DNA of 63,942 nt, the filler included, from Chrysochromulina tobinii (taxonomy: Eukaryota), in assembly GCA_001275005.1 (NCBI GenBank). It is 9 parts of 9 records of this genome, joined end to end, with 100 filler letters (N's around TTAATTAATTAA, not from the genome) between each part and the next. Parts side by side here need not be neighbours in the genome. Positions count along the whole stretch, not along the records: positions 45,081 to 57,667 come from JWZX01000342.1; 8 more parts are not named here. One strand, given 5' to 3'. Position 1 is the stretch's first letter; every line of letters begins with the position of its first letter. Below, one piece after another: positions 46,905 through 61,595 of this stretch. A program made the position numbers and the translations under genes. The notes under the pieces were generated by a model. The model was not told the DNA's origin. It saw nothing but the letters and a program-made list of their open reading frames with translations, and did no database searches.

Positions 46905-47864
46905 ATGTCGAAGTGGTATGAGGAAGAGCTCGAGCCTGGCCTGCGCGCCCAATACGGGCTCAAGAAGATTTTGCACTCGGGCCAGAGCAAATTCCAGACC
47001 GTCGACATCGTCGACCTGGAGCCCTTTGGCCGTACGCTGCTCGTCGACGGGCTGATCCAGTCGAGCCAGATCGACGAGTACGTGTACCATGAGGCGCTCG
47101 TGCACCCGGCTCTGCTCTCGCACCCGTGCCCCAAGTCTGTGTTCATCGGTGGCGGCGGCGAAGGCAGCACGGCCCGTGAGGTGCTGCGGCATGCGACGGT
47201 GGAGCGATGCTTGATGGTGGACATTGACGAGGACGTCGTCAAGTTTTGCCGCGAAAACCTGCCCGAGAACGCGGCGGCCTGGACCGACCCACGATTCGAG
47301 CTCGTCATCGCCGACGCGAAGGCGACACTCGAGAACTCGCCCACGAACTTCGACGTGATCATCATGGACCTCGACGACCCTCTGGAGGGCGGCCCTTGCT
47401 ACCAGTTGTATTCGGTCGAGTTCTACCAGACGGTGAAGCGCAAGCTCAACCCGGGTGGCATCTTCATAACGCAGTCGGGGCAGGCGGGAATCACGCGCCA
47501 CCACCTCGTGTGGTCGCCTGTCTACTCGACCCTCAAGCAGGTCTTCCCTGCTGTCAAGGCATACACCCAAGCGGTGTACTCCTTCCTTGATGAGTGGGGA
47601 TGGAACATTGCCTCGACCGACGAGAGCATCAGCCCGCTGCTCCTCAGCCCCGAAGAGGTCGACAAGCGCATCGCCGCGCGCATCAAGGGCGAGATGAAGT
47701 TTCTGGATGGCGAGTCGTACACCGGCCTCTACTGCCTCTCGAAGAAGCACCGGCAGACACTCGCTGCGGAGACGGCCGTCCTCTCGATTGAGAAGGGCAC
47801 CTTCGCCGTGATGCACTCGCAGGGGCTCTGCGTCGCGGAGGCGGGCTCGGCGGAGGTGTCCTGA
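46905..47864 (+). CDS. ACL5: Polyamine aminopropyltransferase, thermospermine synthase (ACL5)-like
   Basis: DEYVYHEALVHP, FIGGGGEGSTAREVLRH (GEG rather than the GDG of spermidine synthase), DLDDPLEGGPCYQLY. Confidence 0.85.
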   Translation: MSKWYEEELEPGLRAQYGLKKILHSGQSKFQTVDIVDLEPFGRTLLVDGLIQSSQIDEYVYHEALVHPALLSHPCPKSVFIGGGGEGSTAREVLRHATVERCLMVDIDEDVVKFCRENLPENAAAWTDPRFELVIADAKATLENSPTNFDVIIMDLDDPLEGGPCYQLYSVEFYQTVKRKLNPGGIFITQSGQAGITRHHLVWSPVYSTLKQVFPAVKAYTQAVYSFLDEWGWNIASTDESISPLLLSPEEVDKRIAARIKGEMKFLDGESYTGLYCLSKKHRQTLAAETAVLSIEKGTFAVMHSQGLCVAEAGSAEVS

Positions 47865-51611: not shown

Positions 51612-52586
51612 TCAGTGGTTCATCTTCTGGCGCTTCTTCAGGCGCATGCCCAGGACCTGTGCGTCACGCTCGGCGGGCTCGGTGCTGCCTTCGGGCCGTT
51701 CACGCTTGGGCTCCTTGAGTCCCTTCATCCTGGCGGTGGCCATCTTGGACAGGTCCTGTCGCGGCAGGCGCAGCTGGCCCTGCTTGCCGAGGAGCTTGGA
51801 GCGCGTCACGTTCTTGATCTTCTTGGGCGCCTGCGCAGAGACCTTCGGGCGCGTCATCGCCGCCGCCATCAGCTCATCGGACGCGTAGTGCGTGCGCCGG
51901 ATGCTCAGGTCCAACGAGGGTCCCATCTCGACGAGGCTCACATGAGGGCTGGTCCCCTCGGCGCTCTTGAGGAGGCGCGCGAGGTAGTGGCGGAGCAGCA
52001 CTTTGCCGCCCACCGCGGTGAAGCACAGGAAGTGGTCGATCCCGAGCGGCGAGATTGACTCGATCACCTCGAGGTTGAAAAAGTCGACGAGCAGACCGCG
52101 CAGGTGCTGCAGCTCGGCCGTGTGTGACCAGTCGGCGCCCGAGAAGAGGAGGCACGGCTTGGCACCGCTCGTTGAGCCGCCACCCGCGCCTGGAAAGCTC
52201 CCCATCGGCTCGTACGCGCTGATGCCCAGCTCGACCATGTCGAGCACGTGGTGGTCGAACATGCGCCCGAGCACCAGGTTGTTTGGGCGTTTCTTGGAGT
52301 GCGTGCCGAAGGCGAAGAGGCTCGCGTCATTCTTCTGGCAGAGAAACTCGAGCGGCGCCGCGTCCTCGAATGGGTGCACCGCGTTGTGCCGTTTGAAGTG
52401 AACCGAGTGCGGCTTCTTGAGCATGTACAGGTCGGTCAGCGCCGCGTTCACGAGCGCCGAGGTTTTCTGGCCGCGTGCGATGAGTGTGTTACGCGCGTTC
52501 TCGATGAGCTTCGGCTCGCGCTTCTGCAGCACGCGCCGGCCACGAGCGGTCTTGGCCGCCTTGACGGCCGCCGACTGAACCGGCAT
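51612..52586 (-). CDS. RPF2: Ribosome production factor 2 (Brix domain)
   Basis: REPKLIEN, HPFED, LEFLCQKNDASLFAFGTHSKKRPNNLVLGRMFD, LVEMGPSLDL. Confidence 0.95.
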   Translation of the reverse strand: MPVQSAAVKAAKTARGRRVLQKREPKLIENARNTLIARGQKTSALVNAALTDLYMLKKPHSVHFKRHNAVHPFEDAAPLEFLCQKNDASLFAFGTHSKKRPNNLVLGRMFDHHVLDMVELGISAYEPMGSFPGAGGGSTSGAKPCLLFSGADWSHTAELQHLRGLLVDFFNLEVIESISPLGIDHFLCFTAVGGKVLLRHYLARLLKSAEGTSPHVSLVEMGPSLDLSIRRTHYASDELMAAAMTRPKVSAQAPKKIKNVTRSKLLGKQGQLRLPRQDLSKMATARMKGLKEPKRERPEGSTEPAERDAQVLGMRLKKRQKMNH

Positions 52587-53769
52587 TGACGACTTCAAGA
52601 GGCGAGAGGGACGACGTCGACGACATTTCGATTCACACAACTTTCACAGCGCGTCGACAGCTTGCGGATGCTCCTTTTTCAGTTTAGACAGGAACCAGTC
52701 CTGGCCGCACAGTGAGCGCTTGAAGCGGCGGCTGAGCGCTATGGACTCGATTGCGCTCAAAAGTGCCGCCGGCCGATCAAGCCCGAAACCCTTGCGCCTT
52801 GGCCCGAAAGCCGAAGTCATAAGAATCAGGAAATTGCAGGCAGCTTAAAAACCACAACAGGGCTGAGAGATAGCTGTGCGAGCCTGACTCCGCCGTCGAG
52901 CAGCGGAATGGCGCCCTTGTACACGAGCAGGTTCGTCGGCACGGCGGCGATCGGCACAGCGCGAGGCCGAGGGCGAGCAGCAGCGCGGCGGTGGCTCCGC
53001 GGTCGGGCATGCTTGCATTCAAATGACTACGGACAACAGATGTTGACGCAGTTGTTTGAGAATCTGAAAAATCTTGGGGGATCTTTGCTTCTATGTGGCG
53101 CGGTCGCGGGCACAATGTCAAGTCCCGCCGTGTATCTTGGCATCACGATGCTGGCGTTTGGCGCGTTGAACTTTGCCATCGGCATTTCGATGCTCGGAGA
53201 GCGCGGCGCACGCAACCGGGTACGCTGCGCAACCTGAATTCATTACCTCCGCCGCTGCTGATCGGTGATCCTCCGCGCAAAATTGCAGGCGCAGCTCGCC
53301 GAATTTCTCGCTGCTGATAGGAAGGCATCCACGCAAGAGAAGGCGTGATTTTGCCAACGAGCCAGCATCAGAGTATAGCATAGGGCATAGGGTATAGTTG
53401 TGGCATCTGCACACGGCACGGTCAAAGAACAAGTCTTTTCAGAAAGTGCCATCGCCGGGGGTCCGTTATTGAGCGCGGGCGCGGTTGCGCGTGTGGCCAC
53501 ACACCCAGGGTGTGTGCTTCGAGGGCAGTGAGTTAGCGCAGCCTACAACTCAAGATCCCTTTCATCATTGGCGCTGTTGATACACGTACTGCGGATTACA
53601 CAAGAGCAAAACCTCGTAAAAACTAGCCACGCACGCACGCGCGAGCGACGTCGTTGCGCGCGATCGGGTAGCTGATAAAGGCTCTGAGCTCTTGGTGCAA
53701 GAAGCACGTTACGTTCGTGAGCGCTCACTGTACTGTAGGTAGGTGAAGCAGAGTGACTCCGCCATTGCT

Positions 53770-53858
53770 GCAGTCTCGACGCGCGGTGCTCGGGCGGTGC
53801 CCCAGGCAAGACAAAGTCGCCATTGGGGGCAGCGCCGTCATGGTGCGCGCGTGACTGC
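53770..53858 (-). promoter_or_regulatory. Eukaryotic SECIS element (type II)
   Basis: Helix I ACGCGCG/CGCGCGU plus GCAGUC/GACUGC; core AUGAC...CGAG; helix II GGCG-C-UGCCCC/GGGGCA-C-CGCC; unpaired AA; apical GGC-GAC-UUU-GUC-UU-GCC. Lies ~340 nt 3' of the ArsM stop. Confidence 0.85.
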
Positions 53859-54197
53859 GGAGGAGGTGGAGACGAGGCCGGCTCGCCTAACGGCTCCCTC
53901 TCACTCTCTGCGACGGGTAGCTCTTGGTCATTCAGGTAGGAAGGTCTAGCAGTCACCAATTCTCTTGGGTGAGATCGGGTGAGATCGGTTGAGATAGGTC
54001 GAGATCGGTCGAGAGACGCTGCCGAGCGACGCGCCCTACCCGCGCCGCGACGAAAGAGCGACCTCGCGAGGCCCTAATATGGTAGTGGCCTCGTGAGGAG
54101 CCGCCCTCCCTAAAATGGTAGAGCCGCCCTCCAGTCGCCGCCGGGCAGTACACGGAGGTGCGCCTTGGCATCAGCCCTTGGCGCCCTCGGCAGTCGC

Positions 54198-55118
54198 TTA
54201 ACATCAGCTCTTGGCGCCCTTGGCAGTCGCCATCGCGACGGGTGCGGCGATGCCTCCAGGGGGACCAGCGGCCGTCGCGGGCTTGCGAGCGGTCACGTTG
54301 GCCGAGACTACGTACTTCTCGGCCTCTGAGCCCGGGAGCCAATCCTTGATGAACTCGGCCGACTCGGGCTTCATCACGACGCTCACATCGATGAATCCGG
54401 CATCGCGCAGCAACCCCTCGATTTCAGTGGGAAGCGGCGCGCCCGCGACTCAGCAGGCGAGGGCCTGCTCGTCCTTGAGGCGCTGCGGCAGCTCCTGCGT
54501 ACGCACTACGTCCGAGACGGCCACGCGCCCGCCCGGCTTGAGCACCCGGAACGCCTCGCGGCAAACGGCCGCCTTATCGGGCGACAAGTTGATGACGCAG
54601 TTGGAGATCACCACGTCGGCCGTCGCGTCGGGCAGTGGCAGGTGCTCGATTTCGCCGAGCAGGAAGTTGGTGTTGGCCACGCCGAGGCGCCGTGCCGCCT
54701 CACGCGCCTTTTTGAGCATCGCCGGCACCATGTCTACCCCAAAGGCCTTGCCGGTCGGCCCAACAGCCTTGGAGGCGAGCAAGCAGTCGATGCCCGCACC
54801 GCAGCCCAGGTCGACGACGATCTCGCCCTCACGCAAGGCAGCGAGCGAGACCGGGTTTCCGCAGCCCAGGCCGAGGTCGGCACCCGATGCCTCGCCGAGC
54901 TGCCGATCCGAGGCGGAGTAGCCCATCGCCCCGCCCTTGTCCTTGACTGCGGTGACGCAGCACGATTGCGTGCCCTCCGCGACGCCCTCGTAGGCGCGGT
55001 AGACGGCCTCGCGATCCATCACATAGACAGCCTCGCGCTTGCGACGGGCGAGAAAGTAATAGCCGATCGCCGCGCCGGCGAAGCCCGCCGCCACGGCCGC
55101 CACGTACCGCGACGCCAT
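54198..55118 (-). CDS. arsM: Arsenite S-adenosylmethionine methyltransferase, selenoprotein (UGA at 54452-54450; probable second UGA at 54206-54204)
   Basis: [42 protein letters not shown] continues in frame to LRDAGF...[12 protein letters not shown] and ends KS-TGA-TGT-TAA. SECIS lies downstream. Confidence 0.9.
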
Positions 55119-55306
55119 GGGGCCTCCTGCGCCGTGATCGGAACAACGCGAGCTTGAAGGATAGTGTGGGTAGTCGGAAGTGGGATGTGTTTCGGTGACC
55201 CTAATCGCGAGAACGTTGGGGCTATCTTTCCCGCGCTCTGTAAAGACAAAGTCCGACTGCGAGCGCGCCCGGCCTGCTCGCTGCCTTGCGTCCCGCCGGG
55301 GCCGCC

Positions 55307-57631
55307 ATGCTGGCATCGGCAGACCAGCTCTCGAGCCTCACCATCAAGCCGCTCAAGGCACTCTGCGCCGCACACGGCATCGATCACGGCCTCTCCGGCA
55401 AGAAGAAGTCTGAGCACGTGCAGCGGCTGCTCACGATCAAGAAGGTGACCGCCGCCGAGTGCCAGCGCCACCACGCGGCCGCGGCCGCGGCGCCCGCCAA
55501 GTCGCCGTCCAAGTCGGGCGCCGCGCGCAAGGCGACTCAGAAGAAAGCCCTCGAAGCCTACTTTTCGTCGGGTGGGCGAGGCATCCAGTGCACCAAGTGC
55601 GGATATCCGCTCCTCGAGGTCCAGGAGATCAAATCGCTGCACGGCAATCACTCCTTCACGAATGTGTCGTGCTGCCGCTATCCGCAGTGCAAAGGAAACA
55701 ACGGGCTCCTCGGTGCGTACTTGGAGCTGTGCAAGCTTCGCATGCCGCGCATTCGATTCGAGGCGCACAGCCTTGAAGGCATCAACGGCGCCACGAGGCA
55801 CACGTTCTCGGTGAGCGTGGAGGCGGTGCATGCGGAGGTCCTCGAGGAGCTGGTGACGAGACATCAGCTCACGCGCCTCATATTACCCCTACCGGCCGCC
55901 GACCGCTCGGACTTTGCATCGCCGGACGCGCCGCGCCGCGGCCACATATTTGAGTTTGGCTCCCTGCGCGTGGTTTTGGGAGCGGCAAGGCGGCTGGCGG
56001 CCGCGCGGCAGGGAGTGCGAGTGAGCGGGCTGGCCGAGTGCGAGAAGCAGCTCGAGCTCTTCCGGCACGCGGCCGGGCTGCCGAGCGAGTCGGGGTTCGA
56101 AACTGGCAGCGCCGCCGCCACAGCCACCGGCAGCGCCGCCGGCGCCTCTGCCGACGCTCCTCTCTCGACGGCGCGCAAGCCGGCGGCCGCCGCCGAGGAC
56201 CGAGCGCGCGTGGCTCATTACGGCGCGGCGCGCGTGCGTGTTCAGAACTACGTCGAGGACCACGTCCTCGCAGCGGCGGGCGAGGCGCGGCTGGTTGCAT
56301 GCGGGCTGTGGGGAAGGCTGCGCTCGTACCAACGGGAAGGGGTGCTGCGGGCCCTGCGCATGGGGGGCACGTGCCTGATCGCGGACGAGATGGGGCTAGG
56401 CAAGTCGCTCACCGCGCTCGCGATCGTCGCCGCACTCGATGCGTGGCCTTGCCTCGCGATCGTTCCCGCCGTGTGCCGTCGCGGCTGGGCAGAGGAAGCA
56501 GAGCGATGGCTAGGCGGCCTTCTTGCCCCGTCGGACATCCACGTCGTGTACGACCAGTTCGGCGCCTTGGAGGAGGGCCGCCCGGTGCCGCGCCTCGTGC
56601 TTGTGTCGCCCAAGATGGCCGACTTTACGCACCAGCATGCCAGCCTCGCGAGGCGCTCGTGGGGCTCATGCATTCTTGACGAAGCACATGCATGCATCAC
56701 GACCAACGCGCTGCGCGCCGAGGAGTCGGACCAGACGAAGGCGCTCATGCAGCTGCTCAAGCTGATCCCTCACCGGCTGCTGCTCACGGGCACCCCTGCC
56801 GTTGCCAAGGCCTTCGACTCGTTCAACCAGGTGCAACTGCTCCGTCCGGGGCTGCTCGGAGTGAACAAGTTTGAGTTCCGTCATCGGTTTTTCGACGAAG
56901 CCACGGGTGCATGCAAGCTGCCTCGTCAGCTGCCGCTGCTGCTCCATCGGTTCGTCATGATCCGGCGCACCAAGGCGCAGGTGATGCAGGCGCTGCCCGA
57001 GCGCACAGACATCTTCGTCACGCTACCCGTCGGGCGCGATGCATGCAAGGCACTCCTCCGAGACTATGCACCAACGGAGGAGCAGCGCGCCGTAGCGGCC
57101 ATGGCGGCCGCGGGCCAGGCGGCCAAGCAGGCCGAGGCGGCGGCCAAGGCGGCGGCCAAGGCGGCGGCCAAGGCGGCGGCCAAACTGGCGAGGGGGGGCA
57201 AGCGGGCCGCGACGGCCGGCATCACTGAGGCGGGGGCGGCGGCAGAGCCCGCGGAGGAGGCGGAGGAGGAGGAGAAGGAAGAAGCAGCAGCGGGAGAGGA
57301 TTCCGAGCCTACGGACTCGTTGCGCGTGGCGGGCATCAAGTCAACGGCTCATCGCGTCGGCCTGCTCAAGGCGATCGTCCTCGCTCGGGATGGCTCGTGG
57401 CTGCACGAGCGGCTGCGCGCCCTCGTGTACGCCGCGATCGAAGCCCTCGCCACCGGCGCCGGCGCGGCGGGCGGGCGAGCTGGGCAGCCTCGCAAGCTCG
57501 TCATCTTTGCTCATCACGAGCTGGTGATGACGTCCCTCGAACGAACGATCCAAACGCGCCTCGCAGAGCTGTCGGCCGGTGGCGGCCTCGGCCGCGGGGG
57601 ACGCGGCAGCGGAGGCGGCGGCGGCGGCGGA

Positions 57632-57667
<36 letters not shown>
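55307..57667 (+). CDS. SMARCAL1/ZRANB3-like SNF2 annealing helicase, 3'-partial, with N-terminal SAP-like and Cys-rich motifs
   Basis: [60 protein letters not shown]...CCRYPQC. Confidence 0.8.
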
Positions 57668-57767
57668 NNNNNNNNNNNNNNNNNNNNNNNNNNNNNNNNN
57701 NNNNNNNNNNNTTAATTAATTAANNNNNNNNNNNNNNNNNNNNNNNNNNNNNNNNNNNNNNNNNNNN
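57668..57767. other. Artificial contig linker
   Basis: N44-TTAATTAATTAA-N44. Confidence 0.99.
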
Positions 57768-58029: not shown

Positions 58030-61000
58030 TCACTGGTCTTCGTATCTCGCATCCGAATCGTAGAAGAACTCCGGGTCTTCGAAGCACGAGGGCTCGTAAG
58101 TGGATGGCCCCGGGAGGCCGTTGTCGTCAAGTCGAACGGCAACGTGCTTTGGGTCTGCATGCGCCGTGTCAGGCGGGGGGCCGAGTTGGGCGGGCACGAC
58201 GGGGTTAGGCAGCGGCGCATCGAGCGGGGTCCCGGGTTGCACCACGGGGCTAGGCAGCGGTGCTTGGTACTTCCGCTTGCTAGAGCGCAACGTCATGAAT
58301 GAGGGACCCGCCTCGAGCGCCGAGACCTCTAGCGTGAACATTTCGGGCTTGGCGTGTTTCGTGGAATGATCGCCGTACGGGTCGCCGTCGTCGTCGTCGT
58401 CCGCGCGAGCGGTGTTGCGGTGCTGCTCTGCGCGGCGCTTGCGCTCGTTGATCACCGTGAAGTAGGACATCCATTCATCCTTGACATCTTCGTAGTCTTT
58501 TTCAGACATCTCCTCGTGGTGACCCCATCCTGGTGCGTCGGTTGGCTTGGCAGCGACGCTCTGGGATGAGGGGAAGGGCGAGAGGCGGGCGGCGCGCTCG
58601 GCTTCCTTGAGCTCGATGGAGGCGATGGCCTGGAGCACCAGTGACAGCTTGGCTCCCGTGCCAAGGTACAGGGCGACCGTACCGTTGGCAACGTTTCCGA
58701 AGGTGATCGGATCGCCGCGGTCAGTGACAAGCTGGGCAAGCTCGTCGTTGCGCTTTCTGAACGAATCGTAGTCGAACTGCAGCTCGTCGGGGGCTGGCAT
58801 GTTGCCAGCGTATACGGCGTACAGCTGTCCGAGGCGTTCAGTTCGCGCGGCGGGCGGGAGGTCGAAATCGGCGAGCAGGCCGGTCGTCTTACGCATCGTC
58901 GGTTCCGCAGCCGAGGCAGCGGCGTTCGTCAGTACGAAAGGCTCCAGCTTGGTAGCCGTGGTCGGGTCATCCCGGATCCAGAGGTAGGGAACGGCGTCGA
59001 CTTTGAGCGTCGGGGTCTCAAGGGCTGATGCTTCGGCGCTCGTGGAGATCTGGTTCTTGGAGTTGGTGAGGTACGCGACCGCCGTATCCGTCTGCTTCTT
59101 GCCCTTCCACTTCGTCATAAAGTCGACGGGCATGGACGCCGTGTCGACCTTGGCGAGAGTGATGTTGCCCTGGCGTACGTGCGCCCGAATGTGCGCCCAC
59201 CGGCGCACCGCGTGCTTCGCTTTGCCAGGCGTGGCCGTACCGAGGCCGAGTGTCAGGTTGGCCGAGTTGTCCGTGCCGATCATGATGGGGCTGGTCGGCG
59301 GGTGGCCGAAGGCGCGCAGGATCTCGATCGCGTACACTGCGACTTGCGAGGCGCGCTCAGTGGCGACGCTCTCGTTCCCGACGCTCCCGAGCTCGTCGAT
59401 GATCTCGGCGACCGTGCTGATCTTCTTGACCGCGTGCGCGACAACTCCGCCGTTGTGCGTGAGGACCAGCGCATAGACGGAGCGGCCGTCGACGTTGGCG
59501 TCGGCATGGACTTCCGGCTGTTCGGGTGCCGTTGCCTCGAGGTCCACGTTCGCGAAGAGCCCGCCTTGCAGCATGACGCGTTCAGCGAGTTGGCCGCCGT
59601 AGGTGATGCCTTCTTTGCGCCGCGCGTAGAGGGCGGCGATGAGCGAGCGCGCGACTGTGAGTGCTTCGGGTTGCTTGGCCATCGAAGCCACGCACGCGAG
59701 GCGGTGTTGGAAGAGGCTGAAGCGCAGTTGGACGCCGGCGACGATGTATGATGTAGCGCCGGCAATCTGTTGCGTTTCCTTGCCGGCCGTGCACATTTTC
59801 TTAGGCATAATCTCAGGCTTGCACAGGGCGTCGGCCGCCGCTTGCAGCTTGATGCCGCTCAGGATGTCGGCGGGCAGAGGCGCATCGACATCGAGGAGCT
59901 CGGGCACGTAGTCGCGCGCCAGTTGCACGATGTGCTGATCCATCGTGAGCGTGACGATGGAGCCGTCGGCAGACCATGCGAGCGCATAACCATTCCACGA
60001 GAGCGGCTTATACTTGACGGTGACGTCTTCGTCGCCGTAGCTCTTCTTGAAGTGCGTGATGAGGCGCTCCGTCAGGACGCGGTTGCGCCCACCAGTTTCC
60101 TTGTAGAGGATGTCGTCAACGTTGGTGATGATCACGAGGAAGCTGTCCACGTTCACGTCTTCCATGAACCAGGCGCCTGGCACCGTGAGGGACTCGGTCA
60201 TGCCTGCCTCGACGAGGCGCTTGTTGCGGTCCTGCTCCCATTCGTTGCCCGCGGCGGCCTCTCCCCAGATTGGGGCGCCGAGCTTGTAGCAGAGCTGGTC
60301 GCCCTCATCGTCGTACATCTTCTCGTAGGTCTCCATGAAGCCAACATCGCGGAGGCGTGCGGCCTTCGGATACGCGTTCTTGAAGTCCGTGGACGTGACG
60401 TCGTTCGGGACGCGGCGGAGCTTTGGGTCCTTGGCCATCAGCTCACGCAGTGTGGCCGCTTGGGCTTGCTCGTCTTGGCCATCTCGCCAAGGGAGGACGC
60501 GGCGTCCTTGGTCGTCTTGAACGTCGCCGAGGGTTGCCGTAGAGAGCATGAGCTTGAACTGCAGGTTGTCCGAGATCGTCGCGTGCGTGGCGGCGTAGTC
60601 CTCAACGCCCCTCGCGATCTGGATGCGCTTGACCTGGTCACCGGCGGAGCAGAGCCTGGATTTGAACTTGAGCAGTTCATGCGTCACGAGGTCCTTCTTC
60701 ACGGAGTCCTGCATCACGACCGGGGAGATGATCGCCCCGAGCGCCTTGGCCACCTTGCGCTTCTCCATCGTGTTCAGCGGGTTCGAGAGGACGGATTCGT
60801 GAGCCGCTTGATGCGAGAGGCGCCATGCAGCCTCGTTCGGGTCGGCCTTGAGCGCGCGCTCGTTCTTGGGGATGGTGATCGTGTACCACTCACCGCTCGC
60901 CGACTTGACGTCGACGATGTTCTTGAGCGCCTTGGAGACCTCGAGATCGTCGGCCAGCTCGGTGGCGCTCACCTCGGTCTGGAACGGGTCGATCTTGTTG

Positions 61001-61595
61001 AGGGCGCACTCGAGCTGGTGGATGTGCTCGCGTGCCTTGTCAAGCTCCTCGATCGACTGCACTTCGATTGGCACGATGTGGCCGAGCCATTGGTGCGCGA
61101 TTGCATTGAAGGTGTCAATGGCCGCAGTCTCCGAGAGCCCTGGGAGGACGCGCTCGAGCGCGGCCGAGACCGGCATTGTCAGCCCGGTCGATCGCAGGAC
61201 TCGACGTGGCGCCCCCTGCTGCAGCGCTATCACTGGGAAGGGCGCGGCAGGCACGGGTGCAGCAGCGGCAGGCGAGGGCGCGTTGAGCAGCCGCCACGGT
61301 TGGTGCTGCGATGTGAGGTCAAAGAGCTTGCCCTTCCACTTCGGATCGTCGGCCCAGCTCCTGTCATCCCAGCTCAGCTCGGTGAACACCTTGCCCGACT
61401 CTTGCTTGTGGGACTTGGTGACCGTGGCCGGGAACCATGTAGGCTTCTGCTTGTCCGTGTCGAAGCACATCTCGAGTCGCGTGCCATCAGGCAGCGGCTC
61501 GTAGCCTGCCTGGATGATGATCGGGGCGGGCGGTGGCTTCGGCGGGGCAGCGAGCACGAGCGGCGCGTAGGTCGCATCGTCGTCCGTCTGCACTT
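58030..61595 (-). mobile_element. Ty1/copia LTR retrotransposon pol (RT-RNase H), 5'-partial, uninterrupted
   Basis: RT: FKSRLCSAG, TDFKNAY, PIWGEAAAGNEW, ITNVDDIL. RNase H: HADAN, NESVA, GTDNSAN, KAKH, VDTASMPVDFMTK. Confidence 0.9.

Follow-up and report, generated by a model that had tools for sequence, protein, structure and literature searches.

Here we show that a short intronless gene on the minus strand of a 63,942-nucleotide stretch of Chrysochromulina tobinii DNA (the whole stretch analysed, hereafter the window) is a genuine selenoprotein gene, belonging to an already known algal family, and that selenocysteine (Sec, U) is the most likely reading of its two in-frame UGA codons, under one SECIS element in the 3' untranslated region (UTR). 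Judging from its sequence, the product is likely an enzyme that methylates arsenite (ArsM). The first Sec of the family is already known and the second has been printed once, with no discussion of it found in the consulted parts of the literature; new here are the clade-wide conservation of the tail Sec, the U-C order of the terminal pair, and a subclade with a predicted membrane segment.

Read from the ATG at 55118, the minus strand holds 222 codons, TGA 54452-54450, 81 more sense codons, TGA 54206-54204, TGT, and TAA 54200-54198; with UGA read as Sec, this gives a product of 306 residues in which the two UGAs are residues 223 and 305 (Table 1). The first-pass annotation had placed the first TGA at the last conserved ArsM cysteine, with homology continuing in frame beyond it and the gene ending UGA-Cys-UAA. 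All three statements were borne out: the codon follows Cys222 (A-C-U-V-A-G-A) and aligns with Cys224 of CmArsM, the frame is open to the second TGA with the ArsM alignment going on beyond the first, and the terminal triplets are present, their Sec-Cys reading being supported by the tails of relatives. An intron or a sequencing error at either UGA was considered and rejected, as the RNA-library contigs of six runs contain no joint or difference in the gene and two DNA runs concur; a divergent strain with 14 substitutions (L002) retains both TGAs, which also speaks against sequencing error. We regard decoding as Sec as almost certain for the first UGA and as very probable for the second.

Table 1. 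Features of the selenoprotein gene and its surroundings, with positions along the window.
Feature	Position	Strand	Basis or remark
Ribosome production factor 2 (Rpf2, Brix) gene	51612-52640	-	best named matches are haptophytes
Longest RNA-library contig (run X11), holding start codon, both UGAs and hairpin	53565-55127		1563 bases, 0 differences, 0 gaps
SECIS-type hairpin, type II shape (AUGAC core 53841-53837, AA 53824-53823, GA 53791-53790)	53770-53858	-	folding, pattern scan
Tandem duplicate (33 nt) of the gene's last 11 codons, in the 3' UTR	54165-54197	-	4/33 differences
CDS, ArsM-type SAM methyltransferase, 306 aa, two UGAs most likely read as Sec, no intron	54198-55118	-	PRK11873; RNA contigs without joints
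Terminal TGA-TGT-TAA, very probably Sec305-Cys306-stop	54198-54206	-	39/39 complete related loci with UGA in last three codons
Ala/Pro/Gly-rich linker, residues 280-304, predicted disordered	54207-54281	-	low pLDDT
Cys222-Sec223, TGA (54452-54450) at the arsenic-binding CmArsM Cys224 position	54450-54455	-	alignment, row counts
Cys174 (ISNCV), equivalent of CmArsM Cys174	54597-54599	-	alignment; 81/81 rows
DLGCGAG, presumed SAM-binding motif I, residues 103-109	54792-54812	-	sequence and alignment
Cys86 (GCGNP), equivalent of CmArsM Cys72	54861-54863	-	alignment; 81/81 rows
Cys53-Cys54, N-terminal cysteine pair	54957-54962	-	conservation in Sec-clade and prokaryote-like rows
N-terminal hydrophobic segment, residues 6-24, then RRKR; predicted signal-anchor	55035-55103	-	hydropathy 1.73
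Divergent ORF, start about 170 nt from the methyltransferase start, running into an N gap	55286-57715	+	ORF
ORF of 1187 aa without NCBIfam match	58030-61593	-	ORF, profile search

Sixteen of the 20 listed sequencing runs contain the stretch, with six recorded as RNA, and the runs may stem from one campaign. A single contig covers both UGAs and the hairpin in three of the six RNA runs (X11, X13 and X16), in run X12 a contig joins the second UGA to the hairpin, and in X14 and X15 the region is covered in separate pieces. Contigs from RNA libraries give neither the strand nor the true ends of a transcript; that they reflect RNA follows from a 69-base GT..AG intron of a neighbour, which is spliced out in five of the six RNA runs and in neither of the two DNA runs. 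The SECIS thus lies within the transcript, which in three runs spans the hairpin rather than ending before 53858, the case raised against the gene model at first pass. At the other end, none of the six RNA runs has cover beyond 55109-55130, where DNA cover extends further; this weakly suggests 55118 as the start. An upstream ATG at 55316 is an unlikely start, given this limit of RNA cover and homologues that begin at the methionine of 55118.

The hairpin at 53858-53770, described in the first-pass annotation as a canonical SECIS, has the layout of that form, with an AUGAC core, an upper stem of 11-12 bp, unpaired AA, a mini-stem and a 3' GA, and its core lies 363 nt beyond the second UGA. It folds at -45 kcal/mol (z -3.94; 0/200 shuffles as stable); the SECIS model of Rfam gave no match to it at a threshold as loose as E<=10. 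SECIS detection in the related loci and in the window relied on a purpose-written pattern-and-fold scan, which returned three matches on the two strands of the whole 64-kb window, this hairpin being the lowest in energy. The same pattern occurs within 500 nt of the stop in the 3' regions of 14 of 19 non-redundant loci, compared with 0/19 antisense controls, 2/190 shuffles and 0/13 prokaryote-like loci. The remaining matches in the window lie at 1676 and at 47590, the latter inside a coding region and taken as a false positive of the scan. Five loci that failed the strict scan (L007, L008, L010, L014 and L017) each carry a hairpin with an AUGAC core whose apical loop has CA or GCA instead of AA, seen in a relaxed scan that had no control; these are possibly a non-canonical SECIS type in these algae.

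Profile search, with U read as C, places the protein above the cut-off of the arsenite methyltransferase model NF008823/PRK11873 (288.1 bits against 263). It did not pass the arsenosugar/arsinothricin ArsM models NF038099, NF040538 and NF040539 (79/400, 126/500 and 75/240 bits) or the double-Sec fusion models NF041536, NF041537 and NF047649 (150-159 bits against cut-offs of 460-575). Its best sequence matches are ArsM structures, and on alignment to CmArsM and CrArsM, Cys86, Cys174 and Sec223 fall on Cys72, Cys174 and Cys224, respectively. Cys53 and Cys54 are both present in 13/13 Sec-clade rows and in 66-67 of 68 prokaryote-like rows; one of them is likely the equivalent of CmArsM Cys44, the pair itself lying outside the stretch aligned to CmArsM. 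The DLGCGAG stretch we take to be SAM-binding motif I. An AF2 model (pLDDT 89, pTM 0.85) forms a class I methyltransferase core to about residue 278-279, and Foldseek ranks 1-11 for it are all ArsM structures; residues 281-306 have a mean pLDDT of 53-58, with no modelled secondary structure after residue 278 and no domain past 279.

Position 223 is Cys in 68/68 prokaryote-like rows. The preceding position is Cys in 13/13 Sec-clade rows and in only 6/68 prokaryote-like rows and is, in these alignments, a mark of the Sec clade. Compared with ArsM and AS3MT proteins of known structure (CmArsM 4FR0, CrArsM 5EVJ, human AS3MT 8XT7), the class I fold, the SAM motif and the equivalents of Cys72, Cys174 and Cys224 are shared, whereas in this protein Sec, preceded by an extra Cys, takes the place of Cys224, a loop is shortened, the short core of bacterial type ends at 279 without a folded C-terminal domain, and a Sec tail and a predicted membrane segment are present. 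The clade's own active-site mark (Cys222 with the shortened loop) and the membrane segment of this subclade would also suit an ArsM-like enzyme with another main substrate, such as a selenium or antimony species, or one acting on an arsenosugar or arsenolipid step at a membrane. Such a reading may also draw on the consulted parts of PMC5398495, which place AS3MT homologues in the same algal groups (these may be this gene or a second, Cys-type gene), and of the 2007 and 2020 algal catalogues (PMC2375036, PMC7539508), which give no substrate. All ArsM cysteine positions are retained, however, and the protein passed PRK11873 while failing the arsenosugar/arsinothricin models, so that we judge a different main substrate unlikely and arsenic a reasonably probable one.

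A metagenome scan for relatives yielded 68 loci: the catalytic site reads Cys-UGA-Val in 46, carries a Cys codon in a prokaryote-like context in 18, and lies outside the covered sequence in four. The comparison of homologues at the first Sec site thus sides with the first-pass annotation, Cys in all prokaryote-like rows facing UGA in these loci. Among the best 120 profile matches in protein records, 88 break off at the Cys that precedes the catalytic site, which is what gene callers halting at the UGA would produce, a pattern known from the protein records alone; surveys of arsM genes that require the conserved cysteines can consequently miss or misjudge the family. No full-length Cys form of the Sec clade occurs among these best 120 matches. 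A quick tree of 67 core domains puts 40 Sec-clade rows on one side of a branch and 27 prokaryote-like rows on the other (SH-aLRT 97); the tree is unrooted and has no distant outgroup, and therefore no donor is claimed. One branch of the Sec clade (L016:80-1162; P0336, P0338, P0342, P0343, P0344, P0346, P0348 and P0362) has an N-terminal thioredoxin-like domain lacking CxxC in place of the membrane segment, with Pfam PF00085 matched on P0342, P0346 and P0348.

After seven of the 46 Cys-UGA-Val loci were left out (five without TAA or TAG before the contig end, two broken by introns), 39 complete loci remained. All 39 contain one more UGA and no others, invariably within the final three codons ahead of TAA or TAG, the background chance of a TAA or TAG within three codons being 0.027. 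One of the incomplete loci, L030, reads C-UGA and then 38 codons without TAA or TAG to the contig end. The complete loci give 16 non-redundant tails of 2-127 residues, ending C-U-stop (6), C-U-x (5), U-C or U-C-x (3, including the type of this gene), G-U-H (1) and P-U-stop (1). Cys stands beside the tail UGA in 14/16 of these, in either order, compared with a background Cys-codon rate of 0.03. The second Sec site proposed at first pass thus recurs among homologues, while the further claim that a terminal Sec-Cys pair is the unusual part of this gene does not stand: a tail Sec is the rule of the family, and one was printed for Ostreococcus tauri in 2007. One tail type, present at four loci (L010-L013), has Sec without an adjacent Cys, and a vicinal pair is therefore not always needed. 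Long tails (91-127 residues; L018-L022, L025-L026, L032, L048-L061) carry a helical-looking His block, H-H-A-x-H-T, before the terminal C-U, and the block also appears in published Ostreococcus rows.

Alternatively, the second UGA may be mainly a stop, the SECIS making UGAs leaky and a backup TAA or TAG being selected, with the protein ending at Ser304 and the tail having no selenium role. UGA is followed directly by TAA in 7/16 tails, which could be tandem stops, and L016, which ends P-UGA-TAA, has no tail, linker or Cys; the consulted parts of a review (PMC5398495) describe the C-terminal domain of AS3MT as unconserved and suggest that it has no specific function. In the other 9/16 tails one or two sense codons separate UGA from the stop, so that there is no double stop there. 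A single UGA-to-UAA change would moreover cure a leaky stop, yet every complete locus retains UGA; the Cys codon after the UGA in this gene and in two other tails would be of use only with readthrough; and Cys adjoins the UGA far above its background rate. We consider this alternative very unlikely and a functional tail probable. A Cys-Cys pair within the last 25 residues is found in 23 of 113 full-length prokaryote-like homologues and is the likely precursor of the Sec tail; the other 90 lack it, from which it follows that the core presumably works without a tail.

The family was described as a 'methyltransferase' selenoprotein of O. tauri, O. lucimarinus and Thalassiosira pseudonana (Lobanov 2007, PMC2375036) and kept as the family 'MT' by Jiang 2020 (PMC7539508). 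By eye, against the printed supplementary alignment of the former, this gene has the same A-C-U-V-(S/T/A)-G-A site and downstream blocks. In the O. tauri row, C-U-Q forms the end and includes a second Sec, which passes uncommented: of the two U's, the first alone carries a star, and where two-Sec proteins are discussed, other proteins are named. The row of O. lucimarinus ends with the Cys, and that of T. pseudonana lacks a tail. The consulted parts of PMC2375036 contain no discussion of the second Sec or of a link to arsenic for this family. The protein differs from O. tauri MT in its U-C rather than C-U order, its short 27-residue tail and its N-terminal hydrophobic segment. Prokaryotic Sec arsenite methyltransferases and two- or three-Sec fusions have been catalogued (PMC13188914, PMC9312934); those with a UxxG motif have Sec at the same catalytic position and may be joined to a second Sec module (PMC13188914). 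In contrast to the named double-Sec fusions (NF041536, ArsM/DUF2284; NF041537, ArsM/AhpD; NF047649, methyltransferase/UXPK-star), the second Sec here belongs to a tail without structure rather than to a domain, and the SECIS that serves it is a eukaryotic one in the 3' UTR. The consulted parts of PMC5552862 and PMC6627142 do not treat a Sec form. A partial search of the literature found no discussion of a conserved C-terminal Sec in the MT family, which does not establish its absence from print.

The first-pass annotation had also described a hydrophobic N-terminal anchor. The segment itself is present, with a 19-residue hydropathy that is moderate (1.73) and an Ala/Gly-rich composition, and for these reasons its role as an anchor can only be conjectured. 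It was found in 19/21 rows of the gene's subclade, in 0/19 other Sec-clade rows and in 0/26 scorable prokaryote-like rows, and 15 of the 19 rows that bear it have more positive charge after than before the segment. According to the positive-inside rule, cytosolic flanks of membrane segments carry the positive charge. The segment and its charge pattern would fit a signal-anchor that leaves the enzyme cytosolic; it may alternatively be a cleaved targeting peptide.

Taken together, we give roughly an even chance to a membrane-tethered two-Sec ArsM enzyme that methylates arsenite and whose Sec-Cys tail re-reduces its own active site. ArsM is described as cycling through a disulfide cascade, with disulfides that need thioredoxin (consulted parts of PMC6138428). 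Following that model, As(III) would be held by Cys174 and Sec223, SAM would give its methyl group to the bound arsenic, and the N-terminal cysteines (Cys53/54 and Cys86) would reduce the bound As(V) intermediate, leaving a disulfide. By analogy, the tail Sec305-Cys306 would then swing in and resolve the disulfide, to be recharged by the thioredoxin or glutathione system, while the N-terminal segment would keep the enzyme at the cytosolic face of an organelle membrane. The C-terminal Gly-Cys-Sec-Gly of animal-type thioredoxin reductase and the Cys-Cys of mercuric reductase are swinging arms of this kind. They share with the present tail a vicinal Cys/Sec pair at a flexible end; the likeness is one of design, both enzymes differing from this protein in having an unrelated fold and a flavin. 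Were translation to stop at the first UGA under selenium shortage, the 222-residue product would lack the catalytic residue, and activity would thus depend on selenium.

The chief rival, modelled on the C-terminal Cys-Cys of mercuric reductase, keeps a two-Sec enzyme but has the tail pair capture As(III) or MAs(III) from its complexes with glutathione and pass it to Cys174/Sec223, or remove the product. Vicinal thiol/selenol pairs suit trivalent arsenic, and the indifference to C-U or U-C order across relatives would be no less compatible with chelation than with a defined redox step; several Cys-Cys pairs are common in prokaryote-like tails, and additional Cys-Cys and His clusters occur inside some of the long tails of eukaryotes. 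The lone Sec of L010-L013 would, however, be a poor chelator, and animal-type thioredoxin reductase, the classic redox relay, likewise carries its selenium at a flexible C-terminus. We accordingly hold a capturing arm to be somewhat unlikely, and the larger share of our expectation of a functional tail goes to a reductant rather than a carrier. More tentatively still than the enzyme mechanism itself, it is possible that in a widespread phytoplankton ArsM clade an optional bacterial Cys-Cys tail became an obligatory selenium redox arm, giving a self-resolving enzyme with two Cys/Sec pairs that is membrane-tethered in haptophytes.

If this is true, arsenic methylation carried out in algae by this enzyme would depend at two codons on how much selenium is available, linking the selenium and arsenic cycles of surface waters directly at the molecular level. 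Irrespective of that, arsenic methylation is a likely function, beside a conserved second Sec, for a family that the consulted catalogues have listed since 2007 only as 'methyltransferase'. The gene being short and intronless and its tail removable, the idea of a built-in reductant is directly testable.

The near-duplicate of the gene's end noted past the stop at first pass is indeed present at 54197-54165, with CAA where the first copy has TAA, so that the stop is lost. It is a tandem duplication in the 3' UTR: the echo matches 23/27 bases in this species and at most 15/27 in the other 18 non-redundant loci, a comparison that yielded no support for a function. The duplicate is private to this species among these loci and probably inert. 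Further small repeats in the 3' UTR (53965-54110, minus strand) include an array of 10-mers near 53965-54014, which also matches other transcripts, and two occurrences of a ctaccat..ttaggg unit; this UTR is thus prone to short duplications.

A haptophyte host, as stated at first pass, is supported by the neighbouring Rpf2 gene, whose best named matches are a Scyphosphaera-like MMETSP entry and Emiliania huxleyi. For the latter species, 96 selenoprotein genes have been predicted (consulted parts of PMC7539508). Just past the 3' end of the selenoprotein mRNA lies a short spliced transcript (RNA cover 53066-53559, intron 53219-53287), whose GT..AG borders are on the plus strand and which is therefore convergent to the selenoprotein gene. 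On the other side, the divergent ORF at 55286-57715 contains what we take to be SNF2-helicase-like motifs, and the ORF at 58030-61593 presumably covers reverse transcriptase and RNase H of a copia-type retroelement.
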